Shown here one piece after another: positions 5,673 to 59,691 of a DNA stretch of 64,000 bases. A program made the position numbers and the translations under genes. The notes beneath the pieces are model-generated. The model had not been told where the DNA came from, searched no databases, and saw only the letters and a program-made list of their open reading frames with translations. The DNA is from Candidatus Aenigmarchaeota archaeon LH_S7 (GTDB taxonomy: Archaea > Aenigmatarchaeota > Aenigmatarchaeia > QMZS01). The stretch spans positions 4,388 to 68,387 of the forward strand of contig JAGXOL010000002.1 of NCBI GenBank assembly GCA_023659895.1, written 5' to 3'. The first letter of the stretch is position 1. Every line of letters starts with the position of its first letter.

Positions 5673-5801
5673 ATGACACCCCATACCAAAAAGCTATAAG
5701 TTTCTTTACTTATTTCTAATAATATAATTTCCTTGACCAGGAGGAGCAATTCCCCAACCATCCATTATAACTAAAATTATTTTCTTAATAAGTTATATTT
5801 T

Positions 5802-6734
5802 ATGAAGGTTTTGATAACAGGAGGTGCAGGTTTTATTGGCTCAAACTTAATTGAAAAATTAGCTGAGAAAAATGAAGTAATTGTAATTGACAATTTATCT
5901 GGAGGCAGGAAGGAATTCATAGAACCCTTTCTTGATAAAATAAAATTCTACAAAGTTGATTTATTAAATAATGTAAATGATTACTTTTCTGGGGTTGAAG
6001 AGGTCTGGCATCTGGCAGCAGATCCTTCTGTAAAGGATTCTTCAATACAAACTTTTTTTAGGGATTTGGAAATAACAAAAAATGTTCTTGAAGCTTGTAG
6101 AAAAAATAAAGTCAAGAGAATTTTATTTACTTCAAGTTCTACAGTTTATGGGGAGTCCGAATTAAACACACCAGAAAACTGCGAAACAAAACCAATCTCT
6201 TTTTATGGAGGTACAAAGCTCTCTTGTGAATCCCTGATTTCAAACTACTGCTCCCTCTACAAAATTCAGGGCTTCCTTTTTAGATTTGCAAATATAATTG
6301 GAAAAAACTCGACCCATGGTGTGATTTATGATTTTATTGGGAAACTCTCAAAAAATAAAGAAGAGTTAAAAATTTTAGGTGATGGAAAACAGACAAAAAG
6401 TTATCTCTCTGTTAGTGATTGTATAAATGGAATGCTGATAGCAAGAGATAAAGCAAAAGAAAAAATAAATATATTTAATCTTGGAAGTAGAGACAAGACG
6501 AATGTGAAAGAGATTGCAGAAATTGTTGTTGAAGAGATGATTTCCTCACTTCAGAAAAAACCGAAATTTAAATTCACAGGTGGAGTTGATAATGGAAAAG
6601 GATGGAAAGGTGATGTTAAAGAAATGCTGTTAGATATTTCAAAATTACAGAAACTTGGATTTACTCCAAAAAATTCGTCAAAAGAAGCTGTCAGAGAAGC
6701 TGTTAGAGAAACAATTAATTCTTATCAATTATAA
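5802..6734 (+). CDS. NAD-dependent epimerase/dehydratase (UDP-sugar 4-epimerase-like SDR)
   Basis: It has the Rossmann motif ITGGAGFIGSNL and a YGGTK catalytic Y-x3-K. Confidence 0.9.
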   Translation: MKVLITGGAGFIGSNLIEKLAEKNEVIVIDNLSGGRKEFIEPFLDKIKFYKVDLLNNVNDYFSGVEEVWHLAADPSVKDSSIQTFFRDLEITKNVLEACRKNKVKRILFTSSSTVYGESELNTPENCETKPISFYGGTKLSCESLISNYCSLYKIQGFLFRFANIIGKNSTHGVIYDFIGKLSKNKEELKILGDGKQTKSYLSVSDCINGMLIARDKAKEKINIFNLGSRDKTNVKEIAEIVVEEMISSLQKKPKFKFTGGVDNGKGWKGDVKEMLLDISKLQKLGFTPKNSSKEAVREAVRETINSYQL

Positions 6735-9962: not shown

Positions 9963-10274
9963 ATGGGATACAAACCACCTCCAAAAAGTGAGCAAGTTTT
10001 TAGATTAGTCCAGAAAATTCCCAAAGGAAAAATTACAACCTATAAAGAAATTGGCTCTAAACTTGGTTTAAATCCAAGAGAAGTTGGCAGAATCCTGTCA
10101 AAAAATGAAGATCTAAGGAGGATTAAATGCTATAAAGTTGTTGGGACTAATAGAGAAATTGGAGGATATAGATTAGGAGAAACCGAGAAAATTAGAAAAC
10201 TGAGGAGAGAGGGGATTAAAATTAAAAAAGGAAAAATTGTGAATTTTAAGGAAAAAGTTATCAAATTTTTCTAA
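9963..10274 (+). CDS. MGMT-family DNA-binding domain protein (Ogt/Atl-like)
   Basis: The IPKGKITTYKEI..RxVG pattern matches the MGMT C-terminal domain. The active-site PCHRV is replaced by KCYKV. Confidence 0.7.
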   Translation: MGYKPPPKSEQVFRLVQKIPKGKITTYKEIGSKLGLNPREVGRILSKNEDLRRIKCYKVVGTNREIGGYRLGETEKIRKLRREGIKIKKGKIVNFKEKVIKFF

Positions 10275-14730: not shown

Positions 14731-14767
14731 AATATAAAAAACTAGTTTATATGATTTTATATATAAA

Positions 14768-15774
14768 GGTGTGCGAAATAAAATAACCAACTAATCAACT
14801 CTCTACAGGAAGCCTAATTTCGCACACTTACTTCACTAAAGAGACCAGTTCCACCTTACTATTTTAGATTCTAAATCTGCTAAACTCCCTGAGACTTGTT
14901 TTGTTATTGATAATGCTGTCAACAGCAGTGAGCAATATTGCACTCAATGAAGCAAAAACAACAGATATTTTTCTTTTAATTCCAACAACATTCTGCCAAC
15001 ATTTATCCATTGAGTTTTTGATAACTGAATTGAACTGCTCAACAATATATCTCTTTTTCTTCAGTATTTTTGGAGTCCAACGTCTTTTCTTGGTGTTCCT
15101 CCTGTTTTTTGCAATTACTGGTTTTGCCCCTTTCTCTCTACAAGCTTTTCTATTGGCCTCTGAATCATAACCAGCATCTGCTAAAGCAAGTTTACCTGAG
15201 ACCAATAACTCTGGTAAGAAAGGGGAATCATGTTTGTTTCCTGTTGTTAAAATTGCCTTTAGAGGCAATCCAAGTTGGTTTACAGAAAGATGTGTTTTAA
15301 ATCCTTTGAATGCTCCTCTCGAGTAAAAACCAACTTTGGTATCTGGATCTTCTTCATCCACCAAAGGAGTTGAGTCTATTATCAATAGTTCTGTTGGAAT
15401 AATCATCTGAATTATTGATGACAATTTGTTGAATACTTGTGTTACTAGATCAGAATATGTTTTCTTCCAGACACTAAGTCTTGACCTGTCTGGAACTCCT
15501 GTTAATCCAAGGCTTCTTCTTATTTTTGGATTCATTCGTTGCTTCACAACGATGCACCGTTTTGCTTCGCAAAACGAGTGTGCTTTTAAATGTCTGATTA
15601 ACTGGCAATCATTGAATCCTCTAATTTTCTGGTAAATTAAAGTTCTTGTTCTTGGTACATTTCTATATCCTCTTCTACCTCTGCCTTTCTGAGATGGAAC
15701 CATCCCTTTGTTTACCAAATGTCTTATAATATTACCTGCTTCCATCTATTAATTTGGTTTATTTCGCACACCCC
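14768..15774 (-). mobile_element. IS4/IS5-superfamily insertion sequence, copy 1
   Basis: It has terminal inverted repeats GGTGTGCGAAATAAA at both ends, plus a third internal copy of GTGTGCGAAAT near the 3' end. TTTATATAT-like sequence is present on both flanks. Confidence 0.85.
14864..15745 (-). CDS. DDE transposase (DDE_Tnp_1, IS4/IS5 type), 293 aa, with a 16-aa insert
   Basis: It has the motifs IIDSTPL, ADAGYDS and RYIVEQFNSVIKN. It is about 90% identical to the copy at 42185-43018, apart from the HSFCEAKRCIVVKQRM insert. Confidence 0.9.
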   Translation of the reverse strand: MEAGNIIRHLVNKGMVPSQKGRGRRGYRNVPRTRTLIYQKIRGFNDCQLIRHLKAHSFCEAKRCIVVKQRMNPKIRRSLGLTGVPDRSRLSVWKKTYSDLVTQVFNKLSSIIQMIIPTELLIIDSTPLVDEEDPDTKVGFYSRGAFKGFKTHLSVNQLGLPLKAILTTGNKHDSPFLPELLVSGKLALADAGYDSEANRKACREKGAKPVIAKNRRNTKKRRWTPKILKKKRYIVEQFNSVIKNSMDKCWQNVVGIKRKISVVFASLSAILLTAVDSIINNKTSLREFSRFRI

Positions 15775-15944
15775 TATTTATATATTTTACAAAAATACGC
15801 TTGCTTAGGGCAAACTCTTCGCAAAACTTCGTTTTGCTCGTCTCGGACTTCGTCCTCAAGAATATAACAGCGATTAAGAGGTAAAATTTCTTACAGAAAT
15901 TTCCCAAATTTTCACTTCATGAAAACTTCTTTTAACGGCATACG

Positions 15945-23310: not shown

Positions 23311-23558
23311 GGGCATGTAGCTCAGCTGGATAGAGCACCGGCCTTCTAAGGAACCGAGGAAAGCCGGGGGTCGCAGGTTCGAAGGGAACTTTTAGAAAAA
23401 GTTCCATCAAAAAAAGAAGGGAACTTTTAGAAAAAGTTCCATCAAAAAAAGAAGGGAACTTTTAGAAACCTCGAAAAACAAAGTTTTTCGGGGCCCCATA
23501 AACCTTTGGTTTATGAGGAAGTTCCATCAAAAAAGTCTCGGGAATCCTGTCATGCCCA
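23311..23558 (+). tRNA. tRNA-Arg(UCU) with two introns (13 nt at 37/38, 23349-23361; 161 nt at 59/60, 23384-23544)
   Basis: The exons fold as acceptor GGGCATG/CATGCCC, D stem GCTC/GAGC, anticodon arm CCGGC-CTTCTAA-GCCGG and T stem GCAGG/CCTGT around TTCGAA|T. Confidence 0.85.
23384..23535 (+). repeat. Tandem 35-nt repeat inside the tRNA-Arg T-loop intron (2 exact units + 1 expanded unit)
   Basis: The unit GGGAACTTTTAGAAAAAGTTCCATCAAAAAAAGAA occurs at 23384-23418 and 23419-23453. The third unit starts at 23454 and has its hairpin loop replaced by two nested hairpins (23469-23493 and 23497-23515). Confidence 0.9.
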
Positions 23559-42078: not shown

Positions 42079-42155
42079 AAAATTTAACAAAATTTAATAA
42101 ATAAGTGTTGTTTTTTTCTTAACAATGAAGCAAGTATTTCTAAAAAAATAGTATA

Positions 42156-43116
42156 GGGGTGTGTGAAATAAACCAAATTAATAGATGGAAGCAGGTAATA
42201 TTATAAGACATTTGGTAAACAAAGGGATGGTTCCATCTCAGAAAGGCAGAGGTAGAAGAGGATATAGAAATGTACCAAGAACAAGAACTTTAATTTACCA
42301 GAAAATTAGAGGATTCAATGATTGCCAGTTAATCAGACATTTAAAAGCAAATCCAAAAGTTAGAAGAAGCCTTGGATTAACAGGAGTTCCAGACAGGTCA
42401 AGACTCAGTGTCTGGAAGAATCTATATTCGGATCTTGTGATAACTGCCTTCAACAAATTGTCATCAATAATCCAGATGATAATTCCAACAGACATGTTAG
42501 TTGCGGATTCAACTCCTTTAGTGGATGAAGAAGATCCAGATGCAAAAGTTGGTTTTAATTCAAGAGGGGCATTCAAAGGATTTAAAACACATCTTTCTGT
42601 AAACCATCTTGGATTGCCTCTAAAGGCAATTTTAACAACAGGCAATAAACATGATTCCCCTTTCTTACCAGAGTTATTGGTCTCAGGTAAACTTGCTTTA
42701 GCAGATGCTGGTTATGATTCAGAGGCCAATAGAAAAGCTTGTAGAGAGAAAGGGGCAAAACCAGTAATTGCAAAAAACAGGAGGAACACCAAGAAAAGAC
42801 GTTGGACTCCAAAAATACTGAAGAAAAAGAGATATATTGTTGAGCAGTTCAATTCAATTATCAAGAACTCAATGGATAAATGTTGGCAGAAGGTTAGAGG
42901 AATCATAAGAAAAACATCTGTTGTTTTTGCTTCATTGAGTGCAATATTGCTCACTGCTATTGACAGTATTATCAATAACAAAACAAGTCTCAGGGAATTC
43001 AGCAGATTTAGAATCTAAAATAGTAAGGTGGAAATTATCTCTTTAGTGGGAGCATGTGTGCGAAATTAGGCTTCCTGTAGAGAGTTGATTAGTTGGTTAT
43101 TTTATTTCGCACACCC
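42156..43116 (+). mobile_element. IS4/IS5-superfamily insertion sequence, copy 2
   Basis: It has the same termini as copy 1 (GGGGTGTGTGAAATAAACC ... TTATTTCGCACACCC). It is flanked by AAAAATAGTAT on both sides. Confidence 0.85.
42185..43018 (+). CDS. DDE transposase (IS4/IS5 type), 277 aa
   Basis: It has VADSTPL, ADAGYDS and RYIVEQFNSIIKN. Confidence 0.9.
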   Translation: MEAGNIIRHLVNKGMVPSQKGRGRRGYRNVPRTRTLIYQKIRGFNDCQLIRHLKANPKVRRSLGLTGVPDRSRLSVWKNLYSDLVITAFNKLSSIIQMIIPTDMLVADSTPLVDEEDPDAKVGFNSRGAFKGFKTHLSVNHLGLPLKAILTTGNKHDSPFLPELLVSGKLALADAGYDSEANRKACREKGAKPVIAKNRRNTKKRRWTPKILKKKRYIVEQFNSIIKNSMDKCWQKVRGIIRKTSVVFASLSAILLTAIDSIINNKTSLREFSRFRI

Positions 43117-43154
43117 TTAAAAATAGTATTTAAAAATTTAAAACATATTACACT

Positions 43155-47649: not shown

Positions 47650-47856
47650 CGCCTCGGGGAGGATTCTCGAACTTCAATGAGGGAATGCGTTGAAAGGAAG
47701 AAATGTGTTCTCCCTTTTAACCTCGAACCTCCGACCTCATGGTTTCTGCAGGTATATAACAGCTTCGCCCGGAACCTTCTTTTTAATCAGGTTTTGACTG
47801 GAAGCGGAAGCTCCAAAAGATTCCGACATGCGCTCTACCTGCTGAGCTACCGAGGC
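47650..47856 (-). tRNA. tRNA-Asn(GUU) with three introns (47764-47826 at 30/31; 47744-47756 at 37/38; about 47664-47721 at 59/60)
   Basis: Four exons (30+7+22+14 = 73 nt) assemble into acceptor GCCTCGG/CCGAGGC, D stem GCTC/GAGC, anticodon arm CATGG-CTGTTAA-CCATG, T stem GGAGG/CCTCC and discriminator G. Confidence 0.8.
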
Positions 47857-47885
47857 ATATATTAATAACAAATTAATTTTAATTA
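47857..47885 (-). promoter_or_regulatory. AT-rich promoter block upstream of tRNA-Asn, duplicated at 48716-48762
   Basis: ATATATTAATAACAAATTAATTTTAATTA (plus strand) directly abuts the tRNA 5' end. TATA-like TTAAAATTAA lies about 20-29 nt upstream. Confidence 0.5.
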
Positions 47886-48487: not shown

Positions 48488-48561
48488 AATATTCTTTGTT
48501 AAAAACTTTCTTCTTTTGGATCAAACCTTCCTTTTTTGCTCAAGCTTTTTTAAAAGCTTGT

Positions 48562-48715
48562 TTTGATGGAACTTCCTCATAAACCGAAGGTTTATGGGGC
48601 CCCGAAAAACAAAGTTTTTCGAGGTTTTTAAAAGTTCCCTTCTTTTTTTGCTGGAACTTTTTTCTAAAAAGCTCATTCGAACCCGCGACTTTCAGGTGTC
48701 TTCTTTCATAGAGGC
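48562..48715 (-). other. Orphan tRNA-like 5' fragment fused to the intron hairpin module (split-tRNA half or pseudogene)
   Basis: The minus strand reads GCCTCTATGAAAGAAGACACCTGAAAGTCGCGGGTTCGAA. It continues with a degenerate repeat unit and the two-hairpin module seen in the tRNA-Arg intron. No CCCGC/acceptor 3' exon follows. Confidence 0.5.
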
Positions 48716-48762
48716 ATATATTATTTACCCTCAAAACTTTAATAACAAATTAATTTTAATTA
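48716..48762 (-). promoter_or_regulatory. Second copy of the tRNA-Asn promoter block (with a 17-nt insertion)
   Basis: The sequence is ATATATTA[TTTACCCTCAAAACTTT]AATAACAAATTAATTTTAATTA. The first five transcribed nt (GCCTC) are also shared with tRNA-Asn. Confidence 0.5.
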
Positions 48763-48771
48763 ATTTCAAAA

Positions 48772-49053
48772 TTATTTCCAATATCCTCTTCTCTTCAACT
48801 CCTTCACTTCCTGCTTGTTGTATTTAGCAATTATATCTCCTCTTTCATCAGATTGCAACTCCCATAGCTTAACAATCACAACCATGTTCAAACCTATCCA
48901 AAGACCTCTCTTCAAAGCTCCGGGGATTCTGCAAACTCTTATCTTATCATCCATACAAGCAACTCTAAAATGAGCTCCACCTAGTTTTTCCTCTACTATT
49001 CCTAAGACTTCTCCCTCTTTTGGTAGTCTTAATTTATGTTCTTCCATAATCAA
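48772..49053 (-). CDS. eif1a: Translation initiation factor aIF-1A
   Basis: It has an S1/OB pattern EGEVLGIV..G..FRV.C.D...R.CRIPG.LK..LWI. The start may be the ATG at 49047. Confidence 0.9.
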   Translation of the reverse strand: MIMEEHKLRLPKEGEVLGIVEEKLGGAHFRVACMDDKIRVCRIPGALKRGLWIGLNMVVIVKLWELQSDERGDIIAKYNKQEVKELKRRGYWK

Positions 49054-49097: not shown

Positions 49098-50732
49098 CTA
49101 ATAACCCACATAATACAATTTAACCAAATAAGGAATTTTATTCCCATTTATATCTGAATAATATTGCATACAATAACTACTGTCTTCAGGTATATCTCTA
49201 TCAAAAACAAAATGGTGTTCTCCAGCAGTCCAAAACATTCCTGTCCTCAAAAGTAATTTTAAATCATCTCTTGTTTTATTAAAATCATACATCCAAAAAG
49301 CTCTTGGAGAAGTTTCATAGGTCTTACCATACTCTTCTAAAATCTTAGCATTCACTAAACTTATTGTTGTGTCTGAAGAAGGGGACAGAACTGTATATTC
49401 ATTTGAATCTACTGTCAGAGGAACATTATCCTTAAAAGTATAATTTCTTGGATTTGATGCAGTTGGAGAAATCTTTACATCAAATGAATCATTGTTTTCT
49501 ATTTGGTAAACACCTAGTTTCACAGAAGAAGAATGCATACAATACTCTCCTTTACTCGTACTATTAGGGCATCCTGTTATATTTACACAAAAACCAAAAT
49601 TTTCAACAGGATATTTACCATCATGCAAATATAAGTTTCCACTTCCTCCACTAGTATCTATTCTAACAATATTATCAAGGAATCTTTTTGCAATCATTCC
49701 TGTATTAGGGTTAGATAAATTGTTGAAACTTAAATCCTTTGTAGAAAAGCTTCCCCAAATATAATTTATTTGAAAAATTTCCTTTGTCAAGGAATCTGGA
49801 TTAGAAGTAAAATCCCTGATCAGAACAATTCCTTTACCTTTTCTTAACAGATTCTTTACATTTGATTCATAATCAGATAAATTTACATTACCACAAACAA
49901 TATAAGTGTCAAAACTGTTATCTGATAGCAAGTTTGCTATGCTCAATATATTTGTACTAATATTTTTTGGAGGATAGTTTGCACTAAAAAATTCTGAAGG
50001 TAAATTGCAACTGTCATGTATTCCCACAGAAATATTTTGTCCAGAAATACCTTTTATCTCATATTCAAAATCTACCATCGGAGGAAAGGTTTCACTACTT
50101 AAATCCTCAAAATATTCTTTATCCAAACTTCTATACAAGCATAGTTTTCGTAGTTCAAGACTATTATTTGGTTCAGAAGTAGCTTCACAATATGCGGTTG
50201 TATATAAAGTAATATTGTTTTCTCCTTCATTAAAAGAAAAAGTGCCTGCATCCTCATATCTTATACTACTATTATGACCTTCTAAATCATCCCTCAGCTC
50301 TGTACCATTAACACCATTAACCTCTATATAGCCTTGTTCCCGTAACTCCTCAGAGCCGTTTCTATATACTCTTGCTACAACTGAATAATTACCCGCGATT
50401 GGAACATTTATAGTTATGGTATTATTAGTAGGGCATGATTTAGTGCAGTTCACTCCGCACACATGCCAATCAGTTTTATTGTAAGTGTAATCAGCACCCT
50501 CACAAGCTCTCAAAGCATAATTTTCTTCAGATGATAAAGCACTTTTTGAAATATCATTTATAGACACAGAATTGAGTAAATCATTACAAATAATATTATC
50601 ACTCACTTCCCTCCAATTATTTTTTTCTGTTTGTTTTGTATCTGGTAAAAGATTAGGTAAAATTACTACCAAAACTATGAAAGAAAACAAAACCACTTCT
50701 ATCACCCTAATAAATCCTTTTTTAGCTAACAT
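49098..50732 (-). CDS. Large pilin-like or secreted protein with class III signal peptide
   Basis: MLAKKG|FIRVIEVVLFSFIVLVVIL is followed by a 500-aa N/S/T-rich extracellular region with many NxS/T sites. Confidence 0.55.
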   Translation of the reverse strand: MLAKKGFIRVIEVVLFSFIVLVVILPNLLPDTKQTEKNNWREVSDNIICNDLLNSVSINDISKSALSSEENYALRACEGADYTYNKTDWHVCGVNCTKSCPTNNTITINVPIAGNYSVVARVYRNGSEELREQGYIEVNGVNGTELRDDLEGHNSSIRYEDAGTFSFNEGENNITLYTTAYCEATSEPNNSLELRKLCLYRSLDKEYFEDLSSETFPPMVDFEYEIKGISGQNISVGIHDSCNLPSEFFSANYPPKNISTNILSIANLLSDNSFDTYIVCGNVNLSDYESNVKNLLRKGKGIVLIRDFTSNPDSLTKEIFQINYIWGSFSTKDLSFNNLSNPNTGMIAKRFLDNIVRIDTSGGSGNLYLHDGKYPVENFGFCVNITGCPNSTSKGEYCMHSSSVKLGVYQIENNDSFDVKISPTASNPRNYTFKDNVPLTVDSNEYTVLSPSSDTTISLVNAKILEEYGKTYETSPRAFWMYDFNKTRDDLKLLLRTGMFWTAGEHHFVFDRDIPEDSSYCMQYYSDINGNKIPYLVKLYYVGY

Positions 50733-55816: not shown

Positions 55817-56749
55817 ATGGCAACACCACATAGTCCTAGAAGGGGAAGTATTCAATTTTGGCCGAGAGTTAGAGCTAAAAGAATATACCCTAATATCTCA
55901 TTTTTTAAAGGGGATTCTCTGGGTGTAATCGCAGGTTACAAAGTAAGCATGGTTCAATATTCAGCTACTGAAACCCGTAGCAATGTGAATAAAGGAAAAG
56001 AGATTGTGGAGCCAGGTACTATTCTGGAGATACCTCCTTTGTACCTAATATCTCTGGTTTTTTACAAGAAAACTGCTTATGGAAAAAGGAAGATAACAGA
56101 GTATTTTAACATCAAAGATTTGCCAAAAGAGCTTAAGAAAGACTTGAAAAGAAAAACAAAATTTAAGAAAGAAGAATATGGTAAGATTCCTAAAGAATAT
56201 GATGAATTGAGGATTAAAGTTGCAACTTTTCCTAGAAAAATAAAATTGAAAAAAACACCTGAAATCCTTGAATTTGGTCTTTCCGAGTCTTTAGAAAAAA
56301 CCAAAGAACTTTTAGGTAAAGAAATTAGTCCAGAAAATTATTTTTCTGAGGGTGAGTATATTGATGTTACTTCAATCACAAAAGGAAAAGGTACTCAGGG
56401 CACAGTTAAAAGATTTGGAATAAAATTGAGAGGTCATAAAGCAAAAAAAGGTAGGAGAAGGGTTGGTTCTGTGGGAAGCAGGTCACCTGGAAAAATTGAT
56501 TGGCAGGTTCCAATGCCTGGACAAATGGGTTTTCAACAAAGAACAGAAAACAACAAAGTTATAATGAAAATTTCTGATAATTTAGATGAAATTAATCCTA
56601 AAAGAGGTTTTAAAAGGTATGGGAATGTAAATACAAAATACATTTTAATTAGTGGTTCTGTGCCAGGTCCAAAGAAAAGGTTAGTTGTGCTAAGAAAACC
56701 TAAGAAAGCTAGAAAGATGGTTCCTCAAATAAAGGAAATTTTGAAATAG
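55817..56749 (+). CDS. rpl3: 50S ribosomal protein L3 (uL3)
   Basis: It has PRRGS.QFWPR.RA and a GKGTQG..KR pattern. Confidence 0.93.
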   Translation: MATPHSPRRGSIQFWPRVRAKRIYPNISFFKGDSLGVIAGYKVSMVQYSATETRSNVNKGKEIVEPGTILEIPPLYLISLVFYKKTAYGKRKITEYFNIKDLPKELKKDLKRKTKFKKEEYGKIPKEYDELRIKVATFPRKIKLKKTPEILEFGLSESLEKTKELLGKEISPENYFSEGEYIDVTSITKGKGTQGTVKRFGIKLRGHKAKKGRRRVGSVGSRSPGKIDWQVPMPGQMGFQQRTENNKVIMKISDNLDEINPKRGFKRYGNVNTKYILISGSVPGPKKRLVVLRKPKKARKMVPQIKEILK

Positions 56750-56757
56750 TTATTAAA

Positions 56758-57015
56758 GATGTGCGAAATAAAATAATAAACTAATCAATTTTTCCAGGAA
56801 GCCTAATTTCGCACACTTACTTCACTAAAGAGATAATTTCCACCTTACTATTTTAGATTCTAAATCTGCTGAATTCCCTGAGACTTATTTTGTCGCAGAT
56901 AATACTGTCAATAGCAATTATCAATATTGCACTCAATGAAGCAAAAACAACAGATGTTTTTCTTATGATTCCTATAACCTTCTGCCAGCATTTATCCATA
57001 GATTTCATACACCCC
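56758..57015 (-). mobile_element. Internally deleted (MITE-like) derivative of the IS at 14768/42156
   Basis: It keeps the 3' terminal module and about 170 nt of the transposase 3' end. It then jumps to a degenerate left terminus, TTTCATACACCCC. Confidence 0.7.
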
Positions 57016-57052
57016 TATATATTTATTCAAATAAATATAGTATGAAATGCTA

Positions 57053-58372: not shown

Positions 58373-58642
58373 AATATTCTTTTTAGGTAAATTAACTTAA
58401 ATTCTTCTTACTCTTGAAAACCTATTTTTGTCTGTGGTTTTCTGTAATTTTCCCTGAAAACTTCTTGGAGTCAGAAATTCTCCAAAAAATTCCCCTCTCT
58501 TTCCAAAAATCATACAAAATATCTTTATTCCTTTATCTTCAAGGAGAATTTTGTTCCCTCCTATTTCTTTTATCTCCTCCATAAAAAGTTAGCGAAGTCA
58601 TAATTACCAAGACTATTATTAAGATTAAATATAATACCTAAA

Positions 58643-58713
58643 GGTGTACGAAATAAAATAATAAACTAATCAATTCTCTCCAGAAAGCTTAATTTCTACC
58701 TTATTATTTTAGA
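58643..58713 (-). mobile_element. Solo degenerate terminal remnant of the same IS family
   Basis: GGTGTACGAAATAAAATAATAAACTAATCAATTCTCTCCAGAAAGCTTAATTTC..CTTATTATTTTAGA aligns to the IS 3' end, with an internal deletion. Confidence 0.55.
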
Positions 58714-59538: not shown

Positions 59539-59576
59539 ACTTGAATTTCAAAAAAATTTTTAAAAAGAAAATAATA

Positions 59577-59691
<115 letters not shown>

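Follow-up and report, generated by a model that had tools for sequence, protein, structure and literature searches.

In Caldiarchaeum subterraneum a tRNA fragment, tRNA-Thr-F, is polymorphic within natural populations, and it has been interpreted as a sign that recombination scatters pieces of tRNA genes (Sugahara et al. 2012, PMC3293823). Split and tri-split tRNA genes are known from Nanoarchaeum equitans and Caldivirga maquilingensis (PMC4033280, PMC4390854), while multi-intron tRNA genes, non-canonical introns and the transposition of introns have been described in Thermoproteales and ARMAN (PMC4090602, PMC5829648). Multi-intron tRNAs, together with splicing endonucleases of broad specificity, are also known from DPANN archaea (PMC5829648).

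Here we describe a locus that invites comparison with each of these systems. It lies in a 64-kb stretch of DNA, hereafter the window, which is AT-rich (G+C ~32%) and derives from an Aenigmarchaeota (DPANN) genome; in a protein search the nearest named relatives of its aIF1A (48772-49053, minus strand) are Aenigmarchaeota/Aenigmatarchaeota MAGs. The locus is a fresh example of a known phenomenon, the tRNA gene fragment made by recombination: very probably it is a non-functional, doubly truncated, paralogous fragment of tRNA-Lys(UUU), carried in a mosaic insertion of ~877 bp. Like tRNA-Thr-F of Caldiarchaeum, it reproduces part of a tRNA gene with introns beside another locus, is flanked by direct repeats, and varies in its presence among members of the population. 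The Caldiarchaeum insertion, however, carries a recombinase and resembles a pNOB8-type integrated element, whereas there is no recombinase here; tRNA-Thr-F is a 5' end used as an att site, whereas the present fragment is an internal exon together with its flanking introns; and, unlike its Caldiarchaeum counterpart, the insertion is pieced together from four sources in the chromosome, with microhomologies and hairpin repeats at the joints.

Standard searches see little of the tRNA complement of the window. ARAGORN found no tRNA in the whole 64 kb, and Rfam returned just a 5S rRNA gene (59576-59691, minus strand; 75.6 bits) and one distorted tRNA match. Four GGTTC(G/A)A sites have a tRNA context, the fourth being the locus studied here. 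Once introns are removed by hand, ARAGORN recognizes three tRNA genes: tRNA-Ala(UGC) (1304-~1453, plus strand), with an intron in the T-loop; tRNA-Arg(UCU) (23311-~23559, plus strand), with introns at 37/38 and in the T-loop; and an intact tRNA-Asn(GUU) (47650-47856, minus strand), with introns at 30/31, at 37/38 and in the T-loop. Unspliced, all three are missed by ARAGORN, and tRNA-Ala alone scores above the Rfam threshold. An intron in the T-loop (59/60) is thus common to every real tRNA gene of the window, some of which carry further introns. In this the genes behind the locus resemble the multi-intron genes of other archaea: Lys, Arg, Asn, Ala and Ser carry one to three introns, one of them at 59/60, and the near-identical modules that these introns share are as expected if intron sequence moves between tRNA genes. 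The locus itself differs from multi-intron tRNA genes in having lost two of its three exons.

The source of the fragment is found in a sister genome (GCA_023659905.1; L009), where an intact tRNA-Lys(UUU) gene with two introns lies directly upstream of rpoH. We reached it by a search with the first 46 residues of a 193-aa ORF from the insertion, which led to the true RpoH of two relatives. The gene consists of exon 1 (5724-5762; GGGCCCGTAGCTCAGTCTGGTTAGAGCGTCAGGCTTTTA, GGGCCCG...CTTTTA), a 49-nt intron at 37/38 (5763-5811; TTATTAAAAGTTTTGAGGGTAAATAATATATGCCTCTATGAAAGAAGAC), exon 2 (5812-5833), a 36-nt T-loop intron (5834-5869) and exon 3 (5870-5883), and ARAGORN identifies the spliced form as tRNA-Lys(ttt). 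Two further loci (L011, L012) have the same exons with different introns and an extra intron in the D-loop, a combination that marks a functional gene. The intact Lys–rpoH locus itself is seen in the sister genome and in one sister sample (L010). Scans of genome contigs with 28-nt and 22-nt Lys patterns, and of metagenome contigs with the 28-nt pattern, gave no match because the scanned collections lack these organisms, and with them this lineage's tRNA-Lys; the Lys exon pattern is present in L012, a JGI contig.

Read along the minus strand, the locus contains a copy of the Lys 37/38 intron (48745-48698; 48 of the 49 nt, one A shorter and otherwise identical to 5763-5811 of the sister genome). 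The middle exon of tRNA-Lys(UUU) follows (48697-48676; nt 38-59, 22 nt, ACCTGAAAGTCGCGGGTTCGAA) and is 100% identical to exon 2 of the sister genome and to L011 and L012; it extends from the 3' strand of the anticodon stem through the variable loop and the 5' T-stem strand to the sixth nucleotide of the T-loop. Next comes the start of the Lys T-loop intron (48675-48654) with a hairpin unit, GAGCTTTTTAGAAAAAAGTTC (48674-48654). At this point the sequence passes into a stretch resembling the T-loop intron of tRNA-Arg(UCU) (48669-48561), ~94% identical to window positions 23425-23532 (96/102 nt, or 102/108 allowing one gap). Within it, in the loop of a hairpin unit, is nested a two-hairpin module of ~50 nt (48624-48575), closed by a stem of GGGAACTTT and AAGTTCC. 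The Arg-like stretch stands where the remainder of the Lys intron, the 14-nt Lys 3' exon (TCCCGTCGGGCTCA) and ~30 nt of trailer would be. Beyond it lies a copy of the tRNA-Lys–rpoH spacer (48574-48488, matching 5913-6000 of the sister genome), which includes the palindromic unit AAGCTTTTAAAAAAGCTT (48559-48542) and a motif, GGTTTGATCCAAAA (48527-48514). In the sister genome GGTTTGATCCAAAA recurs a short way behind stable-RNA genes (~5963-5976; ~10088-10101 and ~9566-9553, both minus strand): tRNA-Lys, a further tRNA and an SRP-RNA-like sequence. It may act in termination or as a processing signal.

An earlier note, made from the sequence of the window, had described the locus as a chimera with an Asn-type promoter and 5' end, a Phe-like anticodon piece and an intron module of the Arg type. 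The sequence features it reported are real. The locus is chimeric, being a mosaic of tRNA-Lys–rpoH and tRNA-Arg intron pieces; the Arg-type module is borne out by the 102/108 match; and the palindrome that it placed near 48541-48560 is the AAGCTTTTAAAAAAGCTT unit. Two of its labels have to be given up. The GCCTC (48715-48711) that was taken for a tRNA 5' end, and which in the sequence is separated from ACCTGAAAGTCGCGGGTTCGAA by tatgaaagaagac, lies inside the copy of the Lys 37/38 intron; the same bases occur within the 49-nt anticodon-loop intron of the intact gene. The CTGAA that was read as the GAA anticodon loop of a tRNA-Phe corresponds to nt 39-43 plus the variable loop of tRNA-Lys (in which ACCUGA, nt 38-43, forms the 3' side of the anticodon stem), in an exon identical to that of the intact Lys gene. 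We therefore reject the Phe reading, and the proposed check on a tRNA-Phe gene is moot, since the exon comes from tRNA-Lys. The promoter claim survives in part: an exact 24-nt copy of the Asn spacer is present (48762-48739 = 47885-47862).

A likeness between the Lys intron and the start of tRNA-Asn deserves separate mention. Twelve nucleotides, AATATATGCCTC, are identical in the Lys intron (48711-48722) and at the Asn 5' end (47852-47863, minus strand), and in the intact Lys intron AATATATGCCTC and TTATTAA, with 18 nt between them, together look like the 17 nt that lead into and open tRNA-Asn (TTATTAATATATGCCTC). The AATATATGCCTC identity and the apparent 18-nt insertion are both native Lys-intron sequence and do not belong to a second Asn promoter. 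The likeness of AATATATGCCTC/TTATTAA to the Asn flank exceeds the expectation from shuffling; it could be due to chance, to microhomology that guided recombination, or to an older shared ancestry of intron and Asn flank.

The earlier note was right that there is no 3' exon. The fragment begins at nt 38, and the locus contains no D arm, no 3' strand of the T-stem and no 3' strand of the acceptor stem. Exons 1 and 3 of tRNA-Lys are absent from it, and with them both strands of the acceptor stem and the anticodon loop; exon 3 has no match in the window even at ≤3 mismatches, and a search of all 64 kb for partner exons found no other Lys exons. Of the T arm, GCGGG TTCGAA is present, while its partner TCCCGT plus CGGGCTCA is deleted and Arg-intron sequence stands in its place. 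ARAGORN and Rfam found no tRNA in the raw locus, which is predicted to fold into separate hairpins and not into a cloverleaf. With the 5' strand of the anticodon stem and the 3' strand of the T-stem missing, neither bulge-helix-bulge splice-site helix can form in cis; lacking exons 1 and 3, the fragment cannot give rise to a tRNA. Transcription from the retained, AT-rich Asn-type upstream region may yield junk RNA at most.

A comparison of strains shows the locus to be part of an insertion. In an alignment of the window with L001 (Logan SRR14170864_187), the window has ~877 extra bp between aIF1A and tRNA-Asn, and the flanks are ~98.7% identical. L001 encodes an identical aIF1A protein, and from its stop codon just 43 nt lead to tRNA-Asn; tRNA-Asn also directly follows aIF1A in two more distant relatives (L004 and L005; aIF1A identity 78%). 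The borders of the insertion are marked by an exact 24-nt direct repeat: copy 1 (TAATTAAAATTAATTTGTTATTAA; 48762-48739, minus strand) belongs to the native aIF1A–tRNA-Asn spacer and contains a TATA-like, AT-rich stretch, and copy 2 (47885-47862, minus strand) lies directly upstream of tRNA-Asn at the right border of the insertion. The event would have re-entered 24 nt upstream of its point of departure. The fragment is, in short, polymorphic for presence and absence and bordered by repeats, as a pseudogene of this kind would be. The neighborhood of aIF1A is a hotspot of strain variation. The gene beside it (49098-50732, minus strand) encodes 544 aa in the window and in L002 (Logan SRR14170872_84), and a look-up of this strain-specific protein returned L013 only, which is the same contig as L002; in L001 the adjacent gene encodes 428 aa, with a 1785-aa protein upstream.

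Piecewise alignment assigns parts of the insertion to their sources. Window positions 48749-48650 match 5759-5859 of the sister genome, with a core (48740-48650 against 5769-5859) identical at 89 of 91 nt by local alignment and both mismatches at its far end; a match of this quality to an intact tRNA-Lys shows that the resemblance is not due to chance. The Arg-like stretch follows, and 48574-48395 matches 5913-6093 of the sister genome at 176/180, covering 31 codons of rpoH and, before them, the spacer and its palindromic unit. The fragment therefore closely matches one part of an intact tRNA gene and is truncated at both ends. At the left junction (48749-48739) the last 11 nt of the spacer, TTTGTTATTAA, agree at 10/11 positions with TTTATTATTAA, at the border between Lys exon 1 and intron 1. 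The switch from Lys to Arg sequence falls inside the TTTTAGAAAAAAG that both share as part of the hairpin unit (overlap 48669-48654), and the return from Arg to Lys inside a shared AAGTTCCATCAAAA. In all, at least five junctions connect sequence from four places in the chromosome, namely the Asn spacer, the Lys–rpoH locus, the Arg intron and a 147-aa gene; wherever the origin of the joined sequence is known, the junction falls in microhomology or a dispersed hairpin repeat.

The rpoH piece (48487-48395, minus strand) comprises the first 31 codons and has three substitutions relative to the RpoH of the sister genome: V14D, in the conserved LVPEH motif, E22K and L29M. That only 31 codons are left and that all three substitutions change the amino acid indicates relaxed constraint; the real rpoH must be elsewhere. 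A non-functional neighbor has thus been transferred together with the tRNA fragment. The stub is fused in frame to a gene for a hypothetical protein of 147 aa with a HELIH motif (48349-47906, minus strand), giving an uninterrupted frame of 193 aa (48487-47906, minus strand). Residues 7-31 of this ORF resemble the start of RpoH (Pfam Rpb5_C, below threshold), and its homologues, small hypothetical proteins of 143-167 aa in varied chromosomal contexts, start at M47. An exact look-up of the 193-aa ORF returned no record, and the neighborhoods of the homologues in L006, L007 and L008 gave no clue to the original site of the gene. The chimeric ORF probably uses the captured promoter and start codon of rpoH.

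The piecewise identities and the presence/absence polymorphism are matters of direct observation; the mechanism we infer from the junction sequences alone. Serial template switching in the course of replication or repair agrees with their pattern, as does a succession of recombinations at short homologies between hairpin repeats; site-specific integration does not. Candidate crossover homologies would be the 11-nt TTT(G/A)TTATTAA, dispersed hairpin units of the CTTTTAGAAAAAG type and AAGTTCCATCAAAA. Starting from the native aIF1A–Asn spacer, the event would have entered the Lys 37/38 intron and continued through exon 2 (nt 38-59) to the start of the Lys T-loop intron; it would then have taken up 108 nt of the Arg T-loop intron with its two-hairpin module, in place of the Lys 3' exon, followed by the Lys–rpoH spacer with 31 rpoH codons and by the 147-aa gene, and would have ended in the 24-nt spacer repeat and the intact tRNA-Asn. 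Such a process would amount to copy-and-paste, with the native Lys–rpoH and Arg loci remaining intact elsewhere in the genome. The earlier note had listed recombination debris among its possibilities, and this is strongly supported by the mosaic structure, by a strain-specific insertion that is absent from the sister strain and from related species, and by the intact tRNA-Lys(UUU) of the sister genome.

The hairpin units at the crossover points form a family of their own. Each unit is ~35 nt long and consists of GGAACTTTTAGAAAAAGTTCC and ATCAAAAAAAGAA, with the variants AAGCTTTTAAAAAAGCTT and GAGCTTTTTAGAAAAAAGCTC. In the window they occur at 1366-1384, 23386-23439, 23469-23520 and 48674-48542, that is, in the T-loop introns of tRNA genes and at the studied locus and nowhere else, a confinement that fits a role as recombination substrates. 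In the sister genome (5440-5560, 5890-5960 and 9890-9580) they also occupy T-loop introns, those of tRNA-Ser and a fourth tRNA, as well as the 3' trailers of tRNAs. They thus offer many homologous crossover points between tRNA loci, and they look like a small mobile or recombinogenic repeat family. A full-text literature search found no paper on the unit sequence. An identical 27-mer, GGAACTTTTAGAAAAAGTTCCATCAAAA, occurs in unrelated metagenome contigs of 31-58% G+C (L018, L019, L025, L026, L029, L036, L047, L048 and L051). One contig of 1.1 Mb and ~55% G+C, which is bacterial as judged by its SAM riboswitch, has five or more copies (its 20-nt core matches six times), of which the one examined is intergenic; the unit, 30 nt long in L029, is inserted there behind the anticodon loop in a gene resembling tRNA-Ala. 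The identity of GGAACTTTTAGAAAAAGTTCCATCAAAA therefore spans domains. The window also contains a different repeat family of ~0.2-1 kb (14754-15802, 42128-43133, 56744-57034 and 58625-58696), with two long copies in inverted orientation (699 nt at 92%, 222 nt at 95%) and shorter, partial copies with the common end sequence …GTGTGCGAAATAAAATAA…; this is probably an insertion sequence or a MITE.

A bolder interpretation would grant these units an active part. The hairpin units (…CTTTTAGAAAAAG… plus ATCAAAA) and the module would constitute a small mobile or recombinogenic family that colonizes T-loop introns and 3' trailers of tRNAs in this Aenigmarchaeota lineage and actively shuffles tRNA exons between loci, and the locus would be an intermediate on the way from multi-intron to split tRNA genes. 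The suggestion of an intermediate arises from an exon that is bounded exactly by two intron positions and stands behind an upstream region of the tRNA type; RNA from the fragment might even be a substrate or a decoy of the splicing machinery. We consider this interpretation unlikely.

It is less probable still that the locus is kept in order to express the hairpin and the two-hairpin module, either as a stand-alone RNA or as a leader RNA that, for example, regulates the downstream ORF or serves its processing. The module does adopt a stable three-way fold (z-score of the whole region, -3.0), recurs with little change in T-loop introns (Arg, Ser and a fourth tRNA), and is preceded here by the TATA-like repeat. 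Its four copies, however, are too alike to show covariation, nothing links the module to a function outside introns, and the copy at issue is strain-specific. The downstream ORF, moreover, has its own captured rpoH promoter and start codon. The fragment also contains T5 runs (48671-48666 and 48610-48605), at which archaeal RNA polymerase would tend to stop.

We attach very little probability to the idea of a trans-spliced, tri-split tRNA-Lys for which the fragment, with a promoter of its own, would supply the middle, and splicing endonuclease and ligase would link it to separate pieces carrying nt 1-37 and nt 60-76; the earlier note had likewise raised the possibility of half of a split tRNA. 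The attraction of the idea is plain, as both borders of the exon coincide exactly with the intron positions 37/38 and 59/60 and the fragment has a copied tRNA upstream region in front of it. As in the known split and tri-split tRNAs, the breaks are thus at intron positions (37/38 and a second site) with a promoter-like region in front, and the DPANN archaea include an organism with split tRNAs, Nanoarchaeum (PMC4033280, PMC5829648). Yet the pieces of a split tRNA are the sole source of that tRNA, whereas the sister genome has an intact, cis-spliced tRNA-Lys(UUU). They are conserved, whereas this piece is strain-specific: it is missing from L001, L004 and L005, and as a strain whose flanks are ~98.7% identical does without it, like related species, it is dispensable. 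They build a bulge-helix-bulge with their partners by means of complementary leaders and trailers, whereas the downstream flank here is Arg-intron sequence and not a dedicated complementary trailer, and partner pieces are not found in the window. Finally, the useless rpoH stub that came along marks a passive co-duplication.

An error of assembly, in which repeated hairpin units joined unrelated sequences into a chimeric contig, is just as improbable. The region is rich in dispersed repeats, and two Logan contigs (L002 and L010) break within repeats. Against an artefact stands the homology at the left junction, which at 7-11 nt is too short for an assembler to join; in addition, L002, a separate assembly, shares the left junction, the first 90 nt of the locus and the Lys-to-Arg switch before it ends inside repeats. 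L002 covers the left half of the insertion, and the right-hand junctions (rpoH to the 147-aa gene, and the 147-aa gene to the Asn spacer) are seen in the window's own contig only; there, the chimeric 193-aa ORF is an uninterrupted frame. An integrase-mediated element of the SSV or pNOB8 type, with a tRNA as att site, we reject, as the insertion contains no recombinase or integrase: its sole ORF is the fusion of rpoH stub and 147-aa gene, with no Pfam match to a recombinase.

As a tRNA the locus, a pseudogene fragment, is of no consequence, but it has practical and evolutionary implications. ARAGORN is blind, and Rfam nearly so, to the real tRNA genes of the window on account of their T-loop introns, and reports of 'missing tRNAs' or 'orphan pieces' in DPANN archaea therefore call for manual splicing first. 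The value of the locus is that of a dated snapshot at the level of the population: what separates two near-identical DPANN strains is a complex event in which one internal tRNA exon was cut out at its intron borders and put behind the upstream region of another tRNA, with repeats borne by introns as the crossover points. The case is relevant to the long-standing problem of whether split tRNA genes arose from intron-containing ones, and indicates that repeats in introns are able to break up tRNA genes and scatter them within a species, as has been proposed for Caldiarchaeum (PMC3293823).
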